From an uncultured Bdellovibrionales bacterium (GTDB taxonomy: Bacteria; Patescibacteriota; Minisyncoccia; Moranbacterales; DUUL01), in assembly GCA_964556685.1 (NCBI GenBank), contig CAZKWX010000003.1, positions 78-64,077 of the forward strand: a stretch of 64,000 bases of DNA, read 5' to 3'. Made by a program: the position numbers and the translations under genes. This document shows positions 8,473-49,260 of this stretch, in pieces. Below the pieces are notes generated by a model. That model had not been told where the DNA came from, searched no databases, and saw nothing but the letters and a program-made list of their open reading frames with translations. Positions within the stretch are counted from its first letter, which is position 1. Each line of letters opens with the position of its first letter.

Positions 8473-8931
8473 ATGCAAGCAATTCTGTCTCGCTATCCTG
8501 CTATTGGACAATTTCTTCGTTTCGGCGTCATTGGCGCAATGAATACCGGGGTTGATCTTGTCATCCTCAACATTCTAATGTTCATATCTGGTTATACTGA
8601 TGGCACGCCCTATTCGATTTTCAAAACCATTTCATTCGCTGCTGCTGCAACCTTTAGCTACTTCATGAACAAGCGCTGGGCTTTCAGAGACAAGTCCAAG
8701 AATCAGGAAGTCAAGAAGTTTTCTCAATTTTTTGTCATTTCCATCATTGGCGCCTTGATCAATGTTACTGTCGCTTCTTTGGTGGTTAATTTTGCTAAAC
8801 CGGCGCTTGATAGCACTTTAATTATTCCTCTTTCTGCTCAAATTTGGGGCAGCGTTGGTGCTCTTTGTGGAACAGCCGTAGGTCTTGCCTGGAACTTCCT
8901 GGGATACAAGTTTATTGTTTTTAAAAAATAG
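8473..8931 (+). CDS. GtrA family membrane protein (polysaccharide/glycolipid synthesis accessory)
   Basis: 152 aa, four TM helices, N-terminal RFGVIGAMNTGVDLVILNIL matches the GtrA-like family. Confidence 0.7.
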   Translation: MQAILSRYPAIGQFLRFGVIGAMNTGVDLVILNILMFISGYTDGTPYSIFKTISFAAAATFSYFMNKRWAFRDKSKNQEVKKFSQFFVISIIGALINVTVASLVVNFAKPALDSTLIIPLSAQIWGSVGALCGTAVGLAWNFLGYKFIVFKK

Positions 8932-9149: not shown

Positions 9150-9310
9150 TTACTCTTCCCCCTCTTTTGGAAAGATGTTGAATTCATTGGTTTTGAATTC
9201 AGGGGGGAATTAAGTGAATTGGCCGGCGTCTACTGCCATTTGAATTAACCCCTCTTGAGAATTACTCATCCGCAATTCTCCGCCTTGCCATAAGGGGAGA
9301 GAATGGGTAT
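9150..9310. repeat. G-tract palindromic dispersed repeat (copy A, MITE/REP-like)
   Basis: Shares blocks AAGAGGGGTTA, CCGGCCAATTCACTTAA, CCCCCTGAATTCA..TGAATTCA and AAGAGGGGGAA with 23245-23375 (opposite orientation). Confidence 0.55.
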
Positions 9311-9345: not shown

Positions 9346-11052
9346 ATGTCTTCATCCCTTTATCAAAAATATCGACCAAAAACTTTTTCCGAGATCAGCG
9401 GACAGAGCTTTACTATTCGCACGCTGACCAACGCCATCAAAAATGATCACGTTGGCCATGCCTATTTGCTAACTGGTCCTCGTGGAACCGGAAAAACTAC
9501 CATTGCTCGAGTTTTTGCCAAATCCATCAATTGCCTGGATCTGCAAAAACCCAAAACCAGCAAACAAGCTAACCAAAACACCAGTATTGAGCCGTGTAAC
9601 CAATGTGATAATTGCAAACTGATCCTTGAGGATAAGGCCTTAGATCTAATCGAAATTGATGCTGCTTCTCACACTGGAGTGGACAACATTCGCCAGCTCA
9701 AAGAAGCGGTTCCTCTTCCTCCGTCGGCTTTGAATTATAAAGTCTATATTATTGATGAAGTTCACATGCTTTCGATTGGCGCTTTCAATGCCTTACTTAA
9801 AACTTTGGAAGAACCTCCTGCTCATGCCGTTTTCATTTTGGCTACCACTGAACTTCACAAAGTTCCCGAGACTATCATTTCTCGCTGTCAACGATTTGAC
9901 ATCACTCCTCTCTCTCAAGATCAAATCACTGGGCGCTTGGCTCAGTTGGCCAAAAAAGAAAGGGTTAAAATTGAAAAAGAAGCGCTTGAAACGATTGCTT
10001 TGGAAGCCGAGGGTGGGATGCGCGATGCTGAATCATTGCTGAGTCAAATTATTGCCCTAGAGGACAAGAATATAACTGCCAAAGAAGTTCAGCAAATCCT
10101 AGGCACTTCTTCGCGACGTTTGGTGACTGAGTTTGTTTCGATGATAGCCAGCGGTCAAACTAAAGAGGCCCTAACTAAAATCGACCAAATTCAAAATGAA
10201 GGACTAAATTTGAAGAATTTCAATAAAAATGTTCTGCAATACTTGCGTCATCTGATTATTATTAAGACCAATCCAGATTCAGCCAAGGAAATTATCGGTA
10301 GTATTTCTCAAGATCAGTTCAAGGAAGCTAAGGAAATTGCAGAAAAATTGGTCTTGGAAGATATTTTGTTTTTGACTGAGCTTTTTCAAAAAAGTCTTGA
10401 AGGTTTCAAGGATACTGCTATTCCTCAATTACCTTTAGAATTAGCGGTAGTGGAATATCATGTCAGCAAAAATCAGACAGTTGGTGATCCGGAAGATATT
10501 TCCAAAAATAATCCGGAAAATAAAGAGCCGACGAAACGAGAAAATATTAAATCGCCTGCTACAAAGAAGGGTACCCCACTTCGTCTTGCTGAGCAGGACT
10601 CCGAGGAGCAGGCAGAAAAAGGTATCTTAAAAGATACAGATAATAAAAAAGAGAATAAAAAGGTCATAGAGAAATCAAATAAAAAAAGCAAAGCCAGCAA
10701 TCGAACAGTTACTCTAGAAGAAATTCTAGAAAAATGGTCGGATATTCTCACGGAAGTTAAGCCTCACAACCATTCGATTCATGCTTTTTTGAAAAACTGC
10801 ACGCCTTGTGGAATTGAAGATGATTCACTTTATATAAAAACAAAATATGCCTTTTATAAGGATAAATTAAGTGAAAATAATAATCGGTTGACAGTCCAGA
10901 AGGTCGTTGCTAAAATTCTCGGAGTGTCTTTGAAGGTGGTTTTTTTGACTGAAGCGGAGTGCAAAGATAGAAAATTTGAAAGTTCTAGTGAAAACAAGAA
11001 TGTATTACATGATGCAATGCAAATGATGGGAGGAAGGATTGTGAAGAATTGA
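9346..11052 (+). CDS. dnaX: DNA polymerase III subunit gamma/tau
   Basis: 568 aa; Walker A GPRGTGKTT, zinc module CNQCDNC, AAA+ clamp-loader architecture; stop TGA. Confidence 0.9.
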   Translation: MSSSLYQKYRPKTFSEISGQSFTIRTLTNAIKNDHVGHAYLLTGPRGTGKTTIARVFAKSINCLDLQKPKTSKQANQNTSIEPCNQCDNCKLILEDKALDLIEIDAASHTGVDNIRQLKEAVPLPPSALNYKVYIIDEVHMLSIGAFNALLKTLEEPPAHAVFILATTELHKVPETIISRCQRFDITPLSQDQITGRLAQLAKKERVKIEKEALETIALEAEGGMRDAESLLSQIIALEDKNITAKEVQQILGTSSRRLVTEFVSMIASGQTKEALTKIDQIQNEGLNLKNFNKNVLQYLRHLIIIKTNPDSAKEIIGSISQDQFKEAKEIAEKLVLEDILFLTELFQKSLEGFKDTAIPQLPLELAVVEYHVSKNQTVGDPEDISKNNPENKEPTKRENIKSPATKKGTPLRLAEQDSEEQAEKGILKDTDNKKENKKVIEKSNKKSKASNRTVTLEEILEKWSDILTEVKPHNHSIHAFLKNCTPCGIEDDSLYIKTKYAFYKDKLSENNNRLTVQKVVAKILGVSLKVVFLTEAECKDRKFESSSENKNVLHDAMQMMGGRIVKN

Positions 11053-16463: not shown

Positions 16464-17513
16464 CTATTTTTCTATTTTCTCCCAAGGCAAGCCTTCTTCT
16501 CCAAAATGTCCATAGGTAGCCGTTTGAAGGAAAATTGGCTTTCGCAAGTCAAGCTTCTCAATAATCGCCAAAGGGGTGAAGTCATAATTCTCTCTGACAT
16601 ACTTAGACAGATCCTCTGCTCTTTCATTAATCGCTCTGATCATAACCGGTTGAGCTTTTCCAATAGAATAAGCCACAGCTACCAAGCACTCTTTGGCCAT
16701 TCCTTTGGCTACAATGTTTTTGGCCACAAATCTAGCCATATAGGCCGCTGAGCGGTCCACTTTGGTGGCATCTTTTCCTGAAAAACATCCTCCTCCGTGA
16801 GGAACTAGTCCGCCATAGGTGTCAACCATAATTTTTCTGCCAGTCAGTCCCGTGTCCGCTTCAAAACCTCCCAGAACAAAATTTCCTGTTTTGTTGATAA
16901 TCACTTCAACACCGGAGACATCTCCAATGATTGGCTTGATCAGTTTTTCCATCAGTTCTTTTTTAATTTCTTCCTGAGAAACATCTTCATCATGTTGAGT
17001 GCTGACCACAACAGTTTTCACATTACCATTGCACATAGTCACTTGGGATTTCCCATCTGGCATAAGCCAGGGAAGCGTTCCGTCGGTCCGCAATTTTTCC
17101 AAACCTTGAGTCAGTTTGTGCGCCAGCACTACTCCCTTAGGAAGATATTCTTTGGTCTCATCAGTAGCGTAACCATACATAATTCCTTGATCCCCTGCTC
17201 CACCAGTGTCTACTCCTTGAGAAATGTCGGGTGATTGCTGAACAATATTAGTTTCAATTTTTAGTTCTCCGTTGTGACCGATTTTGTCATAAATTTCTTG
17301 AGCAATTTTTTTCGCATCGATTTTAGCATTGGTGGTAAGTTCTCCTCCAATGACTAAAAGTCCATGGGCTCCCAAAACTTCCATGGCCACTCGACTTTTT
17401 GGATCTTGGCGCAAACATTCATCCAAAATGGCATCGGAAATTTGATCACAAATTTTGTCAGGGTGTCCTGACGTGACACTTTCGGCAGTGTACTCTCGAC
17501 AATCATAATGCAT
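16464..17513 (-). CDS. metK: S-adenosylmethionine synthetase
   Basis: 349 aa; GHPDKICDQISDAILD and GGGCFSGKDATKVDRSAAYMAR signature blocks. Confidence 0.95.
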   Translation of the reverse strand: MHYDCREYTAESVTSGHPDKICDQISDAILDECLRQDPKSRVAMEVLGAHGLLVIGGELTTNAKIDAKKIAQEIYDKIGHNGELKIETNIVQQSPDISQGVDTGGAGDQGIMYGYATDETKEYLPKGVVLAHKLTQGLEKLRTDGTLPWLMPDGKSQVTMCNGNVKTVVVSTQHDEDVSQEEIKKELMEKLIKPIIGDVSGVEVIINKTGNFVLGGFEADTGLTGRKIMVDTYGGLVPHGGGCFSGKDATKVDRSAAYMARFVAKNIVAKGMAKECLVAVAYSIGKAQPVMIRAINERAEDLSKYVRENYDFTPLAIIEKLDLRKPIFLQTATYGHFGEEGLPWEKIEK

Positions 17514-17533: not shown

Positions 17534-17670
17534 AAAAACTTTCCCAAAAGGAAAGCTTCATTCAGCATCTTTCCTCGAAAGGCTAGAGTTGGCACCTACT
17601 GAGATCAAACTCAGGGTTGCCGGCAGGTCATTGGGCTAGATCCCTATCTGCACTCTTGATGATATTTGGT
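17534..17670 (-). promoter_or_regulatory. SAM-I (S-box) riboswitch with intrinsic terminator in the metK leader
   Basis: Minus-strand ATCAAGAGTGCAGATAGGGATCTAGCCCAATGACCTGCCGGCAACC...GGTGCCAACTCTAGCC matches the S-box consensus; followed by GGAAAGATGCTGAATGAAGCTTTCC stem + UUUUGGG U-run just 5' of the metK ATG. Confidence 0.75.
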
Positions 17671-23244: not shown

Positions 23245-23375
23245 TAGTGTAAGGGGAGATTAAGAGGGGTTAGTTTTGATTGCAGAAGAGACCGGCCAAT
23301 TCACTTAACTCCCCCTGAATTCATTACTAATGAATTCAGCCCCCTCTTACCCTAAGAGGGGGAACAAATAAGATC
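23245..23375. repeat. G-tract palindromic dispersed repeat (copy B)
   Basis: Homologous to 9150-9310; contains perfect palindromes GAATTCATTA-c-TAATGAATTC and CCCCCTCTTA-ccc-TAAGAGGGGG. Confidence 0.55.
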
Positions 23376-23430
23376 TACGGCTCATAGGTATCCAAATTAA
23401 TTTCATGAAACTAAGTGAATAGCTGTACAC

Positions 23431-33852: not shown

Positions 33853-33906
33853 TGGAGCCGAAGACCGGGCTTGAACCGATAACCTACCGCTTACAAGGCG
33901 GTTGCC
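33853..33906 (-). pseudogene. 3' two-thirds fragment of a second tRNA-Thr(UGU) (anticodon arm, T arm, acceptor 3' strand, encoded CCA)
   Basis: GCAACCGCCTTGTAAGCGGTAGGTTATCGGTTCAAGCCCGGTCTTCGGCTCCA; no matching 5' acceptor strand nearby; lies 17 nt downstream of the intact tRNA-Thr(UGU). Confidence 0.5.
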
Positions 33907-33923
33907 CCGCCTGCCTATGCCTG

Positions 33924-41186: not shown

Positions 41187-43310
41187 ATGGAATCAAAAAA
41201 ATTTTCCGTCGAAGTAGGCGGGAGAACGCTTGAAGCTGAAAGCGGAATGCTAGCCGGCCAAGCTGGTGGAGCTGTCACCGTGCGCTATGGCGACACGGTT
41301 GTTTTAGCAACGGCTACCATGAGATCTCAGCGGGCTGAAGGAATGGACTATTTCCCGCTTTTTGTTGACTATGAAGAGCGTTACTATGCGGGAGGAAAAA
41401 TCAAAGGCTCACGTTTCATCAAGCGAGAGGGCCGACCTTCTGATCAGGCCATTCTGAATGACCGAGTGATTGATCGAACCATTCGACCGCTCTTTGATGA
41501 ACGAATGAGGAATGAAGTGCAAGTGATTGTCACTGTGCTTTCTATCGACAATGAAAATGATCCTGTAATTGTTTCAGTTATTGCCGCATCTTTGGCTTTG
41601 GGAATTTCCGACGTGCCTTGGAATGGACCAATTGCCGCTGTGCGAGTGGGCGAAATAGATGGAAAGTTGACCATTAATCCAGTCAATGGACAGCTTGAAG
41701 AGTCTCCCGTTGATCTGCTGGTTGCCGGAACTAAAGATAAAATAAACATGATTGAATGCGGTGCCAAGGAATATAGCAATGAAGCCACTGCTAAGGCTAT
41801 CACTCTCGGATTCAATGAAGTCAAGAAGATTGCTGAGTTTCAAGAAAGCATCATCAAAAAAATTGGCAAGAAAAAGCAGGACGTGGAATTGACCACTCCT
41901 TCAGCTGAGTTTAAAAAAGAAATACGAGCAATTTTGGAAGAAAAGAATCTAGCTGAAGCTTTCTACACCAAGGACAAGGAAGAACAGAGCGAAAAAATGG
42001 ACGGAATTAAAGAGCACATCAAAGAGACGTTGGAAGAAAAGTATAGCGATGAAGAAGAGCTGACCAAAAGAAAGGCTGAAGCTGATCTAATCTTTGAAAA
42101 TTATCTCAATGAGGTCTTGCATGAGCGAATTCTGAAAGAAGACAAGCGCCCAGATGGAAGAAAAATGGACGAAGTCAGACTCATTTCTTGTCAGACAGGA
42201 ATTCTTCCTCGCACTCATGGGTCAGGTCTTTTTCAAAGAGGAGAAACTCAAGCTTTGACTGTGACCACTTTGGGAGCTCCTGGTGATGAACAGATTATTG
42301 ACACCATGGAGACCGATGAAAAAAAGCGCTACATTCATCATTACAATTTCCCGCCCTATTGCGTGGGCGAAGTGGGATTCATGCGCGGACCCGGTCGAAG
42401 AGAGATTGGTCATGGCGCTTTGGCTGAGAAAGCCTTGCTGCCAGTGTTGCCATCTCAAAAAGAATTTCCCTACACCATGCTTTTGGTCAGTGAGATTATG
42501 TCCTCCAATGGATCATCTTCGATGGCTTCCACTTGCGGATCAACCCTAGCTTTGATGGACGCAGGAGTGCCCATCAAAAAGCCGGTTAGCGGAATTGCCA
42601 TGGGAATTGTGACGGGAGAAAAAAGTGAATACAAGATTCTCTCTGACATTCAGGGACCGGAAGATCACTGGGGAGACATGGACTTTAAGGTTGCTGGAAC
42701 CAAGGATGGCATCACTGCCATGCAGATGGATGTGAAAATCGACGGCATCACTCCTGAGATCGTGGAAGAGGTTTTGGATCGAGCTTTCAAGAGTCGAATG
42801 GAAATCATGGATGTTATGCTCAAAACTATTGCTGAACCTCGCGAAGAACTTTCTGAATATGCTCCTCGCATCATCACCATACAAATTGATCCTGAAAAAA
42901 TTCGCACCGTGATTGGTCCAGGTGGAAAAGTGATTAATGAGATTATTGATGAAACTGGAGTTCAAATTGACATCGAAGATGATGGCAGCGTGTTTATCAC
43001 TGCTGAAAATGGTGAAGGAGGAGAGCAAGCCAAGAAATGGATTGAAAATTTGACTCATGAAGTGAAGCCCGGTGAAGTTTTCAAAGGAAAGGTTGTCAAA
43101 ATTATGGATTTTGGTGCTTTTGTTGAAATTCTTCCCGGACAAGACGGCATGATACACATTTCCCAATTGTCAGAAAAACGAGTGGAAAAAGTTGAAGATG
43201 TGGTGAAAGTTGGCCAAATTGTAACGGTGCGAGTGGCCGAAATTGATAAAATGGGACGGATTAATCTAACCATGAAGGGACTTAATCATGATGCTCCAGA
43301 AAAAAAGTAA
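41187..43310 (+). CDS. pnp: Polyribonucleotide nucleotidyltransferase (PNPase)
   Basis: 707 aa; two RNase PH domains, KH and S1 domains; leader 41030-41186 carries hairpins TCACATCGTT/AACGATGTGA and CCCGCCAAGGCGGG. Confidence 0.95.
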   Translation: MESKKFSVEVGGRTLEAESGMLAGQAGGAVTVRYGDTVVLATATMRSQRAEGMDYFPLFVDYEERYYAGGKIKGSRFIKREGRPSDQAILNDRVIDRTIRPLFDERMRNEVQVIVTVLSIDNENDPVIVSVIAASLALGISDVPWNGPIAAVRVGEIDGKLTINPVNGQLEESPVDLLVAGTKDKINMIECGAKEYSNEATAKAITLGFNEVKKIAEFQESIIKKIGKKKQDVELTTPSAEFKKEIRAILEEKNLAEAFYTKDKEEQSEKMDGIKEHIKETLEEKYSDEEELTKRKAEADLIFENYLNEVLHERILKEDKRPDGRKMDEVRLISCQTGILPRTHGSGLFQRGETQALTVTTLGAPGDEQIIDTMETDEKKRYIHHYNFPPYCVGEVGFMRGPGRREIGHGALAEKALLPVLPSQKEFPYTMLLVSEIMSSNGSSSMASTCGSTLALMDAGVPIKKPVSGIAMGIVTGEKSEYKILSDIQGPEDHWGDMDFKVAGTKDGITAMQMDVKIDGITPEIVEEVLDRAFKSRMEIMDVMLKTIAEPREELSEYAPRIITIQIDPEKIRTVIGPGGKVINEIIDETGVQIDIEDDGSVFITAENGEGGEQAKKWIENLTHEVKPGEVFKGKVVKIMDFGAFVEILPGQDGMIHISQLSEKRVEKVEDVVKVGQIVTVRVAEIDKMGRINLTMKGLNHDAPEKK

Positions 43311-43359: not shown

Positions 43360-44745
43360 TTGTTTCTCATATTTTTCCATATGTGGTATAATTTTCCTGA
43401 AAAATTAACTTTTCAAAAAAACAAAATGTTTGGCTCAAAAAATAAAAAAAATAAGGGGGAAGAAAAGAAAGAATCTGTGAAGTTTGATTTAGAGACAATG
43501 GAGAGCGACATGAAAGATCCTTTCAAAAAAAAGGATGTGGAGATCACTTCCAATATTCCTATAAAAAATAATGAAAAGCCTCAGAAAGCCTCAGCTAAGA
43601 ATATGCCTCCAAGAAACACGCCGGAAACCCCTTCAAAAAGTCCTTTTTTGACTGATGAAATTGCTTCAGTTACGCCTTCTGATTTTGGCCAGGAGATTCA
43701 GAAAAACAAAGAAAGAGATCATGGGCAAGCTCCCACTCCTAAGGAACAATTTCCAAAAGAGAAAATACCAGCTGTTAAGCCGGAGGTCCCCCAAAACCTG
43801 CCCACTGCAGAAAAAGCTGAAATGCCGAAAACAGACAAGCCTGTTTTTCCTGGAGTTCCAGAGCAAAAAGCTAAGAAAGAAGCCAGTAATGAAGAAATTG
43901 AAAAATATCTTAAACAATCTGTGTCGCGCAAGAAAAAATCAGTTAACATGCCGCTTCTAATCATTGCGGTCGTGGTGCTTGTCGCTACTATTGCGGCTGG
44001 AGCCTATTATTATTTCTTTGTTCTGAATCAGTCATCTGAGACTGTTGAGATTCCTTCGCAAGTCAATGAGGGTGTTAGCACAGACCAGCAAGACACGACT
44101 GACCAAACTGATGTTTCAACAGAGACAACGAATCCCACTGATACGCTTTCCGACACTGGCGTTTTAAATAGTGCTGAAGTTCTTATCATTGAAAACAACG
44201 ACCCCAATGCCAGCTTGATTAATTACATTGCTTTGGCGAAAGAGGACATGGAAAAATCTGCTATGCTGGCTGAAGGCTTCTTCGTGCGAGTGCAAGATGA
44301 AAATGGAATAGTTTCATCGGTTGATCTTTTAGATTATTTCACAATCAACATCCCTAATCTAGATCTATATATCGAGAAGGATGCGTACCTTTTTCTTGCA
44401 TCGTTAAAAGATACCGACACAGTAAAGGTAGCTTTAGTACTTTCTATTGAATCGAATACCAGCGCCGCTATTGTTAAAGAGCATATGAAAGTAGAGGAAA
44501 AAGTTATGCCCAGTCAGATCAAAGTTTTGATGATTGATGAGACAGCTCCTGAAGTGCCAGATCAAGTAGATTTTTCTCCCAGCCTAGTCAACATAGACTT
44601 TCGCTTTTTCAATTATATCGCCGAGAATACCGATCAATCCACTGATTGGGGTGTCATGAAATACAAGGAAGCTAATTATATTGTGTTTACCACTTCGAAA
44701 GACTCAACTGAGAAAATAACTAAAGCTTTGGACCCCTCGCAATAG
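43360..44745 (+). CDS. Hypothetical membrane-anchored protein (likely start 43426, MFGSKNKK)
   Basis: 461 aa ORF; Lys/Pro-rich N-terminal region, one TM, Thr/Asp-rich linker, C-terminal globular domain. Confidence 0.5.
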   Translation: MFLIFFHMWYNFPEKLTFQKNKMFGSKNKKNKGEEKKESVKFDLETMESDMKDPFKKKDVEITSNIPIKNNEKPQKASAKNMPPRNTPETPSKSPFLTDEIASVTPSDFGQEIQKNKERDHGQAPTPKEQFPKEKIPAVKPEVPQNLPTAEKAEMPKTDKPVFPGVPEQKAKKEASNEEIEKYLKQSVSRKKKSVNMPLLIIAVVVLVATIAAGAYYYFFVLNQSSETVEIPSQVNEGVSTDQQDTTDQTDVSTETTNPTDTLSDTGVLNSAEVLIIENNDPNASLINYIALAKEDMEKSAMLAEGFFVRVQDENGIVSSVDLLDYFTINIPNLDLYIEKDAYLFLASLKDTDTVKVALVLSIESNTSAAIVKEHMKVEEKVMPSQIKVLMIDETAPEVPDQVDFSPSLVNIDFRFFNYIAENTDQSTDWGVMKYKEANYIVFTTSKDSTEKITKALDPSQ

Positions 44746-44914
44746 CGGATCTAGTGAATGTGGACAAGTTGTTGACAACTATGGAATCGTTGCAGCTCTG
44801 AAAATTTTGTTAAAAGATTGTTTAAAACGAAAAAAATTTAAATTTTTTCGTTTAGATAAAGCAATAATCGCTTGATTCGTTGACCATTGGGTCAAAAAAT
44901 GCTATAATAGTTAT

Positions 44915-45355
44915 AGATGTAAGTTCCTTCCAATCTTCCGCTTACGCGGCAGAAGAGTTCCAATCGCGATTTCCCCCTATTCGCGATTGGAGTTCTTCTG
45001 CTGCAACTTCCAGGAAACCAGTAAGACTGGATCTAGTAATTCCTGGGTTTTCAAAAACAAAAACAAAATGTTTCTAAAAACAAAAACTAAAAAAATGGGC
45101 CTAGCCCTACAGCGGAAGAAACAAACCTAGTTACTAGAACTAGATCCCGACGAGATTCTAAATAATAACCGAATTGCCGTCTCACCCCCGGCGAGTAGGT
45201 TTCAAGAAATTCGTCGGTATACCCGTGGCACCATGCCACAAAATCTTTTAGAGGGCATTGGTGCCCGGGTTACCCCCCAAGACATTCACGGGTAGAACAA
45301 AGCGGGTGTTCACATAGTTAGGTTTTTTGAGGAAGCGCCAATAGGGCGGTTTTTT
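44915..45355 (+). ncRNA. Candidate structured ncRNA (~440 nt, class unknown)
   Basis: Consensus promoter TTGACC-17-TATAAT (44880-44908, -35 inside palindrome TTGACCATTGGGTCAA); perfect 18-bp stem GAAGAGTTCCAATCGCGA/TCGCGATTGGAGTTCTTC; long-range ACCCGTG/CACGGGT helix; AGAGGGCAUUGGUGCCCGGGUUACC block; terminator-like stem + T6GT4 at 45329-45360; no ORF. Confidence 0.4.
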
Positions 45356-45792
45356 GTTTCCTGAAATATTTTTTGGAAATAAAAAGTGGAAAGCGACAGT
45401 GTTCCTGCTACTTCCCACAAAATTATTTCTGTTGGGTTTATGATTTTAATTGAGGCTATGTTTTAATAGTCACATTCATAAATCCCTAATTCTTTTACAG
45501 CTTTGCACCAGGGCCTGTGTTCAACATGGCCATCGCCACGCAATGGCATGTCGCAACTTCACGTACTTCCAACTTTTTCACAGCCACTTCTGTTTCTGGC
45601 TCTTTCAAGTTCGGCTTTTATATTTATCACTTTATTAGGCTTTCCCATTTGCCCCTTCTCCTTTTAGTATTCCACACGTTAGAGCCTCATGGATTATGTT
45701 TTGATCATCGACTGTTAATCGTTCCAGCTTTTCTCCTATTGGAACTGAAAGGATTATAATAACCACATCTAAAAAGAATTGTATTACCCTTT

Positions 45793-48700
45793 TCATTCTC
45801 CCCCTCCTTGTTTTTTAAGCCATACTGTTAATTGAATGTTATCAATTTTAATATCTTTATTAAAAATGTCTTCACTTGGCTTTTTTAAATAAATCTTTTC
45901 CGCCAGAACTTCCCTGGCAATTTCCTTTTCAAACTTCTGAAAAATATCCGACCCACCTTGATACCATAGTTCAATCCGATCGTCAACTTCAAATCCAGCT
46001 TCTTTGCGAGCACTCTGAATGTGCCGCACCAACTCTCTCATCTGACCTTCCAGTTGCAACTCTTCATCGATGTTGATATCTAGACCAACTTTCAGCTCCT
46101 TTTTATCCTTTTCTTTAGCACCATTAGCACTATATGCTTTCCACTTTAGATTTTTATCTTCCTTTTTAGTCAATTCAACACTTTTCACATTGACTTCATC
46201 TTCTATTAATCCAAGAAGCTCTTTTGTCAATTGACAATTGACAATTGACAATTTATCTAATGGTTGTCTCACTTTGATTCCGTTATCAGCTCTAAGCGAC
46301 AGTCCCAATTCAATAATTTTTCTGGTCATTTCCATGTTCTGGCTTAATTCTTCATCGATTAACTCGTCATTACTCTCTGAAAAATCAACCAGGTGAACTG
46401 ATTCATCCCCTGTCAAATTTCGATATATCTCATCAGCCACAAAAGGACAGAAGGGCGCTAACACTTTTGAAAACTCAGCCAGCACTGTCCAAAGTGTTTG
46501 ATAGGCATCTTCTTTGTCGCTATCATTTTCGCTCTTCCAAAATCTTCGACGTGATCGACGAATATACCAGTTGGAAAGATTGTTGATGAATCTATCGATT
46601 GGTTTAGTGGCAGTAACAATATCATATTTTTGCATATTTTCATCAACTGACTTGATCAGCTTGTGAAGTTCAGATAAAATCCACCGATCAAGTAAGTTTT
46701 CTCGATAGTGCACTTCATGAACATCCAGTTTTTCAGCTGACCACTTGTCCACTGATGCATAGAGAGTGAAAAATGAGTAGCTGTTCCAAAGAGTTCCCAG
46801 CACTCTTCTTTGAATGTCTTTGATGGTTGCTTCAGAAAAGCTCACATCTTGTCCATTGAGCAAGGGAGAAGAAAGCATATAGAATCTCAGCGCATCGGCC
46901 GAGTAGTTTTCCAGGATTTCATCTGGATCAGTGAAATTACCAAATGATTTTGACATTTTTCTTCCGTCTTCCCCGGCAATATTTCCTGTAACAATAACGT
47001 TTTTGAAGCTTTCTTTGTCAAAGACTCCCGTGGCCATCACATGAAGCACATAAAACCAAGCTCGCACTTGACCAACATATTCAGCAATGAAATCGGTGGG
47101 GAAGCTTTTTTCAAATTTTTCTTTATTTTCAAAAGGATAATGAAATTGAGCATAGGGCATGGAACCAGATTCCACCCAGCAATCTAAAACCTGAGGAATT
47201 CGCTTCATTGTTCCACCACATTTTTCGCAAGGAAAAGTCACTTCGTCAATATAGGGTCGATGGTAGTCATCTAGTTCAGCACCTGATAGTTTTTTCAACT
47301 CCTCATACGAGCCCACAACTTTTATATTCCCGCAACCATCACTATTGCTTGCACCATTTTTACCAGATTCCGGTTTCTGATTTACGGATTCCGAATGACA
47401 CTTCCAAACAGGCATAGCTGTTCCCCAATAACGATCTCGCGAAATGTTCCAATCAGGCGCCCCTTCAATTCCTTTTTTGAAACGACCTTCTTTAAAATGA
47501 GTTGGATGCCAGAATATTTTTTCGTTGTTTTTGATAAGTTTTTTTCTGATCTTGTCTATTGCCAAAAACCAAGCCGGTTGAGCTTTGTAGATCAGTTTGG
47601 CATGGCAGCGATGACAGTGGGGATATTTGTGAGTAAATTTTTCTTTTTTAAAAAGTATTCCTTCTTTCTCTAGCCACTCAACAATTTTGTCATTAGCTTC
47701 CCAGACTTTTTCTCCCTGCCACTTCCCTTCAGTCAATCTGCCTTCTTCATCAACAATTAGAGCTAGTGGTAAACCATTCTTTTTTCTAGCTTCAAAATCT
47801 TCTTCACCAAAGGCCGGCGCCGTGGAAACAATTCCTGTTCCATCTTCGCTGGTGACATAATCCTCACTAATCAGGACATAGGCTTTTTGTTCATCATCAG
47901 CAACTTCGCTTTGATGATAGACTGGTTTATAGTGAAGACCAATTAGATCAGTCCCCTTGAATTCCTGAATTATTTCATATTGATCTTCTTGCCCCAAAAC
48001 ATCTAAACGCTCTTTGGCTAAAACATATACTTCTTTTGATTCTAGGTGTTTGACCATTGTATAGGTCATTTTCTCGTTGATGGCCAAAGCAACATTGGCC
48101 AGGATCGTCCAGGGCACAGTTGTCCAAACAAGAAAGTAGGTTTTCTCGTCTTTGGCAAAACTGGCTTGAGATTCTTCGTCAGGGCTGGAGTCTAGTTCCA
48201 TTTTAACAAAAACTGCTGTGTCAGTGTCCTCTTCATAACTATTGTCCATGGCAATTTCAAAATTGGCTAAAGGCGTGGAGCAGCGTGGACAATAGAGCGA
48301 AATACGCACATCTTCATAGATCAGATCTTTTTCATAGAGCTCTTTGAAAGCCCACCAAACTGATTCCATGTAGGTTTTGTCCATGGTTTTATAGGCTCCT
48401 TTGAATTCCACCCAGCGGCCAATCCTATCCACTATTTTCTCCCAGTCGGAAGCGATTTTTGAAGTCATGGCAAAGCAAGTTTGGTTGAATTTCTCGATAC
48501 CCACCACTTTTTCAATTTCTTTTTTTGATTTGATTCCCAATTTTTTTTCCACCATGTTTTCAGCTGGCAGACCATGACAATCCCAACCCCAGCGTCTTTC
48601 CACCCGATAGCCTTTCATTGTCCAATAGCGCGGCATACAGTCTTTCACAATCGAAGAAAGCAAGGTGCCATGATGAGGCACGCCAGTAATAAACGGCGGT

Positions 48701-48837
48701 CCGTCATAGAAGCTATACATTTTGTCTTTGCTCCTTTGTTCGACAGATTTCTCAAAAGTTTGGTTTTCCTTCCAGAATTTAACCAAATCTTTTTCCATCT
48801 CGGAATATTTTCTTTTGGGATCTACTTTTTTGAACAT
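45793..48837 (-). CDS. ileS: Isoleucyl-tRNA synthetase
   Basis: 1014 aa; class I HIGH-like GVPHHGT and KMSKS (KMSKSFGN); zinc-binding Cys cluster; contains coding 7-bp microsatellite at 46226-46254. Confidence 0.95.
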   Translation of the reverse strand: MFKKVDPKRKYSEMEKDLVKFWKENQTFEKSVEQRSKDKMYSFYDGPPFITGVPHHGTLLSSIVKDCMPRYWTMKGYRVERRWGWDCHGLPAENMVEKKLGIKSKKEIEKVVGIEKFNQTCFAMTSKIASDWEKIVDRIGRWVEFKGAYKTMDKTYMESVWWAFKELYEKDLIYEDVRISLYCPRCSTPLANFEIAMDNSYEEDTDTAVFVKMELDSSPDEESQASFAKDEKTYFLVWTTVPWTILANVALAINEKMTYTMVKHLESKEVYVLAKERLDVLGQEDQYEIIQEFKGTDLIGLHYKPVYHQSEVADDEQKAYVLISEDYVTSEDGTGIVSTAPAFGEEDFEARKKNGLPLALIVDEEGRLTEGKWQGEKVWEANDKIVEWLEKEGILFKKEKFTHKYPHCHRCHAKLIYKAQPAWFLAIDKIRKKLIKNNEKIFWHPTHFKEGRFKKGIEGAPDWNISRDRYWGTAMPVWKCHSESVNQKPESGKNGASNSDGCGNIKVVGSYEELKKLSGAELDDYHRPYIDEVTFPCEKCGGTMKRIPQVLDCWVESGSMPYAQFHYPFENKEKFEKSFPTDFIAEYVGQVRAWFYVLHVMATGVFDKESFKNVIVTGNIAGEDGRKMSKSFGNFTDPDEILENYSADALRFYMLSSPLLNGQDVSFSEATIKDIQRRVLGTLWNSYSFFTLYASVDKWSAEKLDVHEVHYRENLLDRWILSELHKLIKSVDENMQKYDIVTATKPIDRFINNLSNWYIRRSRRRFWKSENDSDKEDAYQTLWTVLAEFSKVLAPFCPFVADEIYRNLTGDESVHLVDFSESNDELIDEELSQNMEMTRKIIELGLSLRADNGIKVRQPLDKLSIVNCQLTKELLGLIEDEVNVKSVELTKKEDKNLKWKAYSANGAKEKDKKELKVGLDINIDEELQLEGQMRELVRHIQSARKEAGFEVDDRIELWYQGGSDIFQKFEKEIAREVLAEKIYLKKPSEDIFNKDIKIDNIQLTVWLKKQGGGE

Positions 48838-48959: not shown

Positions 48960-49260
48960 TATAAAAAATCGCCCCAATATCTAAGGACGACTCATGGCCG
49001 TGGTACCACCTTGGTTTAGCTAGTAGTTAGTAGTTGGTAGTTTGTAGAAAAGGTATCCTAAAAACTATCAACTAAAAACTAAAAACTCTTGCTTACAGCT
49101 ATTACGGGCTTACCCGACGAGTTCTATTCTCCCGAGTACTCGAGATTTCTTCTCGCAGCTCCGAAGTGATTGCTCCATCATTGCTTTTGTAATTGTACTT
49201 CTTAATAATTAAATATTTTTCGTGATTTGTAAAGTCTTCTTGGCGTTGCTAAGAGATAAC
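48960..49260 (-). promoter_or_regulatory. T-box leader (tRNA-sensing riboswitch) with intrinsic terminator ahead of ileS
   Basis: Minus-strand AACCAAGGUGGUACCACGG (T-box consensus AAnnnGGGUGGnACCGCG) at 48998-49016, followed by terminator UCGUCC..GGGGCGA + U6 (48964-48990), upstream of the ileS ATG. Confidence 0.7.

Follow-up and report, generated by a model that had tools for sequence, protein, structure and literature searches.

The locus examined here raises the question of what is encoded in a gap of 1,047 bp between an open reading frame (ORF) that we call gene X and the stop codon of the convergent ileS gene. The gap lies in a stretch of 64,000 nucleotides (the window; positions 78 to 64,077 of contig CAZKWX010000003.1, assembly GCA_964556685.1) from a low-GC, AT-rich genome of the Patescibacteria. 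A first-pass annotation, made from the letters alone, had placed in it a promoter-to-terminator unit for a structured RNA of about 440 nt, had read this RNA as either a divergent RNase P RNA or a new RNA class, and had named a search of Rfam and a covariation analysis across relatives as ways to decide. We are confident that the window carries a genuine new structured RNA gene that is not RNase P RNA. This non-coding RNA (ncRNA) gene occupies positions 44880-45355 of the forward strand and consists of a promoter, a transcribed region of ~441 nt and an intrinsic terminator.

All elements that had been listed for this unit were found in their places. The promoter (Table 1 gives the coordinates of all features) matches the sigma-70-type consensus at 11 of 12 positions, carries an upstream TG in addition, and was the sole 11/12 match in a scan within 2.5 kb. 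The pattern TTGAC[CT]-N17-TGCTATAAT is retained in 18 of the 20 homologues described below, the exceptions being the loci L101 (TTGTTATAAT) and L105 (CTGCTATAAT). At the other end, all full-length homologues share a GC hairpin with a run of U6-U7 behind it, in a relative position that matches the terminator of the window; gene X has a terminator-like hairpin of its own, upstream of the RNA promoter. The minimum free energy (MFE) of the forward strand is -159.9 kcal/mol, against -109.2 +/- 5.6 kcal/mol for shuffled sequences (z = -9.1). In addition, the G-U pairs of two of the structures described below, P2 and domain 3, become C-A mismatches on the opposite strand; as they work on the forward strand only, this is taken to be the strand of the RNA. 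One part of the earlier description of the promoter has to be revised: the palindrome TTGACCATTGGGTCAA over the -35 box does exist (44880-44895), but outside the window it is found only, and roughly, in L094, and it was therefore rejected as a conserved operator.

Homologues were retrieved along separate routes. Retrieval guided by IleRS gave 80 Patescibacteria loci, among which only the three closest (L002, L003 and L004) carry a homologue, in the same place and the same convergent orientation; the 77 other ileS loci showed no synteny and no match to a covariance model of domain 3. A metagenome scan using the pattern of the P2 loop gave 14 loci, all 14 of them with full-length homologues. Considering that such a scan selects for the P2 loop itself, contigs of PNPase relatives (65-77% identity) were retrieved independently, without use of the loop, and the RNA was found directly after X in seven of the eight distinct loci obtained in this way. 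The 20 distinct homologous sequences measure 388-553 nt and were found in genomes and metagenomes of Patescibacteria labelled Moranbacteria or Moraniibacteriota by their depositors, the complete genomes JBSHXF010000001.1, JAXHLG010000002.1 and Ga0675942_0000013 being among the carriers; the closest PNPase and IleRS relatives carry the depositor labels Patescibacteria group, Candidatus Moranbacteria or Moraniibacteriota. Their nhmmer E-values range from 1e-24 to 1e-151, with 1.6e-16 and 2e-9 for the two divergent members L105 and L101. Wherever the upstream flank of a family locus is covered, pnp and X precede the RNA, so that the order pnp-X-RNA is constant; the RNA has been kept by a clade of ultra-small bacteria in which PNPase identity has fallen to about 60%. 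On its other side, most loci have a convergent gene, and in L084 and L093 lspA follows on the same strand in place of ileS. Phage records, plasmid records and viral contigs contained no match to the RNA, and a mobile or phage origin was rejected.

None of the 4,227 families of Rfam 15 accounts for this RNA. At gathering thresholds, the window returned only tRNAs and a SAM riboswitch. With the cutoff relaxed to E <= 10, at which unrelated matches were reported down to 8-12 bits, positions 44700-45850 of the window gave noise only, without RNase P, 6S, transfer-messenger (tmRNA) or signal recognition particle (SRP) RNA, and the homologue in L002 (9050-9560) gave none of these four either. The same four were absent from all 64 kb at E <= 5 and from 13 homologous loci. 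Among the large RNAs of Rfam, OLE, ROOL, GOLLD, raiA, HEARO and others were without a match in the window and in these 13 loci. The CRISPR repeat family RF01315 (CRISPR-DR2) reached 18.2 bits on L002 (E = 1.5; gathering score 37), and a CRISPR-like solo repeat was rejected, with one copy per locus and no array in the window. No description of this RNA was found in the literature searched, which included a survey of 224 motifs, and the same searches found no studies of ncRNAs specific to Patescibacteria. The RNA failed each of the membership tests that were run, be it for RNase P, tmRNA, 6S or SRP RNA, for the large ornate RNAs or for CRISPR repeats; at the level of the RNA family it is new. 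Together with the conserved promoter and terminator and the compensatory changes among the 20 homologues, this bears out the second of the two earlier readings, that of a new RNA class.

The predicted fold of the RNA is a series of three consecutive domains between a free 5' leader and the 3' terminator. P1 and P4-P6 were judged by per-sequence folds and hand alignment. The alignment contains 20 related sequences from about five subfamilies, and the shuffle controls therefore overstate significance. Domain 1 is closed by P1, whose duplex forms in 13 of 13 sequences tested despite differences in its strands (-9 to -18 kcal/mol; shuffles, about -4 to -9 kcal/mol). Within it, P2 is paired in 91.9% of cells over 16 distinct sequences, with changes on both sides in 12 of 24 pairs, and none of 500 shuffles equalled this; one internal position is mostly mismatched. 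This is the helix that had been noticed as a perfect 18-bp duplex: it is real and extends to 23-24 bp, but two of its pairs are G-U wobbles. Its 8-bp apical stem and C-rich loop UCCCCCUAUU are nearly invariant, the loop core CCCCCUAUU being present in 19 of the 20 members, six of which were retrieved without the loop as search key. The upper stem and loop are conserved in sequence far beyond the needs of pairing, a pattern typical of a protein-binding site. The hairpin CCAGGAA/TTCCTGG (P3), also noticed at first sight, is present in the window; at its position both length and sequence vary among members, and L083, L094 and L093 lack it.

Between P3 and P4, the RNA displays tracts that are rich in A and free of G. 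One or more of these tracts, 14-24 nt in length and of the form (A5Y)n or (A3-7Y)n, occur in 20 of 20 members, with a predicted unpaired probability of 0.70-1.00, typically around 0.9, as compared with 0.38-0.51 for the whole RNA, and Tandem Repeats Finder reports a period of 23 nt across both tracts of the window. P4 keeps its position while its stem changes (GGGC/GCCC, GGGA/UCCC, GGAUUU/AAAUCC, GGGUUU/AAACCC). The purine run (A)GAAGAA at 45114-45122 is complementary to two elements, the leader motif AGUUCYUU and the 5' strand of P1, in the window and also in homologues, and these may be a second set of alternative partners for the run; the leader motif and the purine run are nearly invariant. 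In domain 2, P5 takes the same position in all members with varying stems (CUAGUU/AACUAG, UAUGCU/AGCAUA, GAGCU/AGCUC), and the outer strands of P6 change in concert between subfamilies (CCGACGA/UCGUCGG, CGGCUU/AAGUCG, CCGAUCU/AGGUCGG).

Domain 3 is where one strand has two candidate partners. Its central helix B, over 17 sequences, is paired in 97% of cells, with changes on both sides in five of six core pairs, and its inner pair is A-U, U-A or C-G in the hand alignment. All changes in its four variable core pairs and in one inner pair are compensatory. The first-pass annotation had described GTGGCA..TGCCAC and GGGCA..TGCCC here as local hairpins; these elements are present, but the covariation pairs them with each other as helix B and not as separate conserved hairpins. 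We also considered two local hairpins with kissing loops, as the loop nucleotides covary, and rejected them in favour of the nested helix B, because the latter explains the extra covarying pair (A-U, U-A, C-G), which is unpaired in most members under the two-hairpin model. Around helix B, strand S1a can pair over a long range with S4 (the ACCCGTG/CACGGGT helix seen earlier, which is confirmed and covaries; 89.9% paired, with both-side changes in four pairs) or with the tail after helix B. The resulting three-way junction (45221-45293) has 90.5% of cells paired and both-side changes in 12 of 19 pairs, with 0 of 500 shuffles reaching this, while the alternative extended hairpin, which has a bulged U, has 92.9% of cells paired and both-side changes in 11 of 16 pairs; the S1a-tail pairs are Watson-Crick in all cells but one. 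S1a follows the pattern CCNG-UG, and its partners, the distal CA[CU]NGG and the tail CNGG, both track the same variable nucleotide (C-G, A-U, G-C). In L100, a U-A compensation is found in the tail where the distal copy merely wobbles, and L105 shows an exchange of roles, in which the distal segment copies the 5' strand and pairs with the tail. We read this as a bistable element, with two mutually exclusive folds that are equally supported by covariation.

Table 1. Features of the RNA gene and its flanking genes, in window coordinates.
Feature	Position	Strand	Description
pnp	41187-43310	+	upstream of gene X
Gene X	43360-44745	+	461-codon ORF; transmembrane helix; no Pfam/NCBIfam family
Sigma-70-type promoter	44880-44908	+	-35 TTGACC at 44880-44885; 17-bp A-tract spacer; extended -10 TGCTATAAT at 44900-44908
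Inferred transcript	44915-45355	+	~441 nt; start placed 7 nt past the -10 box, end at the terminator U-run
5' leader motif AGUUCYUU	44922-44929	+	conserved in alignments; complementary to purine run after P1
P1, 5' strand UCUUCCGCU	44934-44942	+	closes domain 1 (44934-45119); MFE fold
P2 hairpin, 23-24 bp	44946-44968 with 44982-45004	+	13-nt apical loop AUUUCCCCCUAUU at 44969-44981
P3 variable hairpin CCAGGAA...UUCCUGG	45010-45046	+	arms 45010-45016 and 45040-45046; MFE fold
Single-stranded tract 1 CAAAAACAAAAACAAAAU	45052-45069	+	(A5Y)n, 6-nt period, G-free
Single-stranded tract 2 UAAAAACAAAAACUAAAAAAAU	45075-45096	+	second tract, present in most members
P4 small hairpin GGGC-CUA-GCCC	45097-45107	+	position kept, stem changes
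P1, 3' strand AGCGGAAGA	45111-45119	+	followed by conserved purine run
P5 variable hairpin	45127-45143	+	domain 2 (45127-45217)
P6 long irregular stem	45147-45217	+	outer helix CCGACGAG / UUCGUCGG; apex CACCC; MFE folds
Domain 3, strand S1a ACCCGUG	45221-45227	+	alternative partners: S4 or the tail after helix B
Domain 3, helix B	45228-45264	+	GCACCA-UGCC with GGCA-U-UGGUGC; AU-rich loop; covariation
Domain 3, tail CGGGUUACC	45266-45274	+	alternative partner of S1a; conserved NGGUWAYC motif
Domain 3, strand S4 CACGGGU	45287-45293	+	long-range partner of S1a; closes three-way junction
Intrinsic terminator GCGCC-AAUA-GGGCG + U6	45335-45355	+	read from sequence
ileS	45793-48837	-	convergent with the RNA gene

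As to what the RNA does, the explanation that we favour as a whole, and to which we would give an even chance, is a conserved RNA gene acting in trans as a ribonucleoprotein (RNP) scaffold or sponge. Its strong promoter, its clade-wide retention in genomes of ~1 Mb and the lack, in most loci, of a co-oriented downstream gene argue for an RNA that acts in trans. The mechanism is offered more tentatively, as possible rather than probable. An abundant RNA would serve as an RNP scaffold or would sequester protein as a sponge, its G-free A-rich strands binding a single-strand RNA-binding protein in the manner of ARN-type repeats; candidate partners would be an Hfq-like protein, or proteins with S1 or KH domains, for instance the PNPase whose gene stands two places upstream. 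The invariant apex of P2 would provide a second, specific contact with protein or RNA, and the bistable domain 3 would set the available conformation and hence the exposed surface. The A-rich, G-free display with its 6-nt period, which is the most universal feature of the family, fits ARN-type repeats, and several unpaired A-rich motifs of this type, as in the sponge RNA CrcZ, were found in 20 of 20 members, which is a functional analogy only. The stem and loop of P2, for their part, suggest a site of specific contact with protein or RNA, and not a plain antisense loop.

Several points weigh against this interpretation or parts of it. Both ends of the transcript are inferred from promoter and terminator. 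As 14 loci were found via the P2 loop, the apparent invariance of the loop is inflated; moreover, the P2 apex of L101 is GUUUC-UGUAU-GAAAC instead, with the rest of the RNA kept, and the C-rich loop is therefore not universal. In L104, pnp and X are present and the RNA is absent within the 5 kb covered, local synteny being lost. In an AT-rich genome, the A-rich linkers could be tolerated spacers, although the conserved 6-nt period argues otherwise. Finally, one of the two folds of domain 3 may be an intermediate of co-transcriptional folding and not a regulated switch.

The C-rich loop invites a different reading, which we consider rather unlikely, namely a base-pairing regulator whose P2 loop (UCCCCCU) and CACCC loops of P6 would pair with G-rich Shine-Dalgarno sequences, while the long helix would recruit RNase III. 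The C-rich loops of S. aureus RNAIII, of RsaE and of RoxS pair with the Shine-Dalgarno regions of mRNAs, and the RNA resembles RNAIII in its size and multiple domains. The unpaired UCCCCCUAUU loop is found in the 19 members mentioned above, and a complementary Shine-Dalgarno sequence, AAGGAGGGGGAG, precedes an adjacent ORF of 53 codons. However, the stem under the loop is invariant in sequence as well, which antisense pairing does not need, and L101 has retained the remainder of the RNA without the loop. Of 66 G-runs in the 64 kb, moreover, only that Shine-Dalgarno precedes an ORF in a context like that of a ribosome-binding site, with no other complementary site ahead of a start codon, and the 53-codon ORF has no homologue in related loci by tblastn. 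This ORF (45635-45796, reverse strand) overlaps the ileS stop, and its Shine-Dalgarno is unusually strong. It also qualifies the earlier description of the gap as free of ORFs: no conserved ORF lies in the RNA, but this one stands at the right end of the gap.

Quite improbable, in our judgement, is an RNA subunit of a membrane-associated RNP that would be formed with the single-pass protein X, by analogy with OLE RNA and OapA. In all family loci with a covered upstream flank, gene X is the immediate upstream neighbour of the RNA and on its strand, despite the divergence of X (22-31% identity between most members; 56% between L096 and L098), and its product has a cytoplasmic N-terminal region that is long and charged, a transmembrane helix and no domain of known type. 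Yet the block pnp-X-RNA-ileS-lspA is syntenic as a whole, and the adjacency of RNA and X is therefore not specific; L104 has X with no RNA adjoining it. Nor is there an Rfam match to OLE or a recognisable RNA-binding domain in X, for which a word-indexed search found no homologues and a single-sequence AlphaFold model was unusable (predicted local distance difference test score, pLDDT, of 38).

The two mutually exclusive covarying folds of domain 3 stand just before the terminator, and with lspA downstream on the same strand in L084 and L093 they could be taken for a cis-acting element, in which the switch would control termination and thus read-through, antisense to ileS or into lspA. We find this very unlikely: S4 does not overlap the terminator hairpin, the distance to the terminator is variable, by about 10-60 nt, most loci have a convergent gene downstream, ileS carries a T-box-like leader of its own, and ~300 nt of conserved upstream structure would be left unexplained.

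A highly divergent housekeeping RNA, of the 6S, tmRNA or SRP type, would agree with the strong promoter and the clade-wide occurrence, and 6S RNAs are notoriously hard to find by sequence. We regard it as highly improbable, and all three were rejected by the Rfam searches above, by motif searches and by architecture. There was no match to 6S (RF00013) at E <= 10, and no rod of ~180-200 nt whose ends pair and whose middle opens into a bubble; ARAGORN found no tmRNA in the window, and the T-arm motif (GGUUCGAnUCC) is absent; the SRP models (RF00169, RF01854) had no match, nor is there a helix-8 motif. In folds of 13 members, the 5' and 3' ends are unpaired.

The first of the two earlier readings, a divergent RNase P RNA, is by now scarcely credible. 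The size would fit, and the segment AGGGCAUUGGUGCCCGGGUUACC bears a superficial resemblance to a segment of E. coli M1 RNA. The block AGAGGGCAUUGGUGCCCGGGUUACC, which had been compared with RNase P RNA, is there in the sequence, but it is merely the 3' strand of the covarying helix B plus the tail. The P4 core had already been reported as absent, and this is upheld: in 13 of 13 members checked, the P4 strands CR-I (GGAAAGUCC) and CR-V (ACAGAANCCGGCUUA) found best matches with at least 3/9 and at least 4/15 mismatches, respectively, in non-homologous places, and over stretches of 9-11 positions three mismatches or more were needed. No RF00010 or RF00011 match was obtained at E <= 10 in the two family members searched, and no P1 joins the ends. 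RNase P RNAs from circularised genomes of the Candidate Phyla Radiation (CPR) are reported to be diverged and to fall below Rfam thresholds, but they keep many conserved features, and every one in that set is still detectable with RF00010 at lowered thresholds (PMC8172020). RNase P RNA was therefore rejected on the lack of a covariance-model signal and on the unpaired ends, unlike the published CPR RNase P RNAs.

A small protein-coding gene, finally, is a reading to which we give next to no weight and which was rejected, since the ORFs of 25-50 codons on both strands of the window have no counterpart conserved in frame, start or sequence on either strand of the 13 of 20 members checked, where indels are not multiples of three and translations are of low complexity. 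Public gene calls do lie over the RNA gene, as ORFs of 13-122 codons (8487-8855, reverse strand, in L105; 8658-9746 in L097), and these are very probably spurious.

The surroundings of the RNA gene hold further elements. In the stretch that separates the stop codon of gene X from the RNA promoter, some 110-150 bp before the -35 box, the window has two tandem DnaA-box-like 9-mers, TGTGGACAA and TGTTGACAA, at 44759-44778 of the forward strand, in the same orientation and with starts 11 bp apart. Such sites occur in ~13 of 20 family loci (the window, L003, L004, L085, L086, L090, L093, L096, L098, L100, L101, L103 and L105), as perfect pairs of TGTGGATAA in L003 and L098 and as one box only in L093 and L105; the RNA-less L104 also has one, and the L002 subfamily has none. 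Over the whole window, there is no clear enrichment of DnaA boxes (24, against 15.9 +/- 4.4), and a replication origin at the RNA locus was rejected, with no turning point of GC skew and no dnaA among the ORFs scanned.

Upstream of ileS, at 48980-49190 on the reverse strand, a T-box-like leader scores 51 bits (E = 3e-8; gathering score 93), and probably represents a divergent T-box for Ile that would escape standard annotation. The ileS coding region also contains 4.3 tandem repeats of TTGACAA (46224-46253, forward strand). Elsewhere in the window, a conserved element of ~110 nt occurs in two copies (~9183-9290, forward strand, and ~23290-23400, reverse strand), of which the first lies directly upstream of dnaX (9346-11052) and one scores 33.6 bits against Rfam whalefall-1 (gathering score 37). 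A SAM-I riboswitch at 17562-17665 (reverse strand; 58 bits, above the gathering score) precedes a 349-codon ORF at 16464-17513. A tRNA-like match of 26.6 bits (gathering score 29) at 33856-33914 on the reverse strand, immediately downstream of tRNA-Thr, may be a degenerate or unusual tRNA.

Large ncRNAs supported by covariation are rare in bacteria, and those found earlier (RNase P, tmRNA, 6S, OLE, ROOL, GOLLD) each led to new biochemistry. Patescibacteria genomes are tiny, at about 1 Mb, with little dispensable DNA, so that a gene of 400-550 nt retained in them with a near-perfect promoter is probably of importance to the cell. Testable hypotheses are provided by the A-rich display tracts, the invariant hairpin apex and the bistable 3' domain, and the spurious ORFs that gene callers put over the RNA in L105 and L097 should serve as a warning to annotators. 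Taken to its furthest, the proposal would be a new class of large RNA, near-universal in Moranbacteria, in which domain 3 would be a two-state switch responsive to a ligand or protein, gating an RNP assembled on the P2 apex and the (A5Y)n tracts, with expression perhaps linked to replication via the DnaA boxes. We consider this doubtful as a whole; its two-state switch is suggested by the fact that one strand has two covarying, mutually exclusive partners.

Set against known systems, the RNA resembles type A RNase P RNA (RF00010) in its size and in its housekeeping-like conservation within a clade, but is without P4, CR-I, CR-V, a terminal P1 and a covariance-model score. The 37-nt apex of P2, GUUYCAAUCG...CGAUUGRAAC, has palindromic ends like those of the CRISPR-DR2 repeat (RF01315), whereas here the motif is single-copy and sits inside a 24-bp helix of a larger RNA. 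With S. aureus RNAIII and the RsaE/RoxS regulators it shares multiple hairpins and a long stem capped by an unpaired apical loop that contains UCCC; unlike in those RNAs, the stem below the loop is invariant in sequence, and neither a target set nor sequence homology was found. OLE, ROOL, GOLLD and raiA are likewise several hundred nt long, multi-domain, supported by covariation, restricted to lineages and without coding capacity, and in the case of OLE a membrane-protein gene also adjoins the RNA; their architecture is different, with no Rfam match, the host here belongs to the Patescibacteria, and at 390-550 nt the new RNA is smaller than OLE, ROOL and GOLLD. The CrcZ/CrcY sponge RNAs of Pseudomonas (RF01675), from a different phylum, are not homologous (12-13 bits, against a gathering score of 95) and lack P2 and domain 3, which are large conserved extras of the new RNA. 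Yet both are stand-alone RNAs of ~400 nt with unpaired A-rich ARN-type motifs between hairpins, and the sole recurrent weak Rfam signal, those same 12-13 bits to CrcZ in the window RNA and in L002, falls on the A-tracts.

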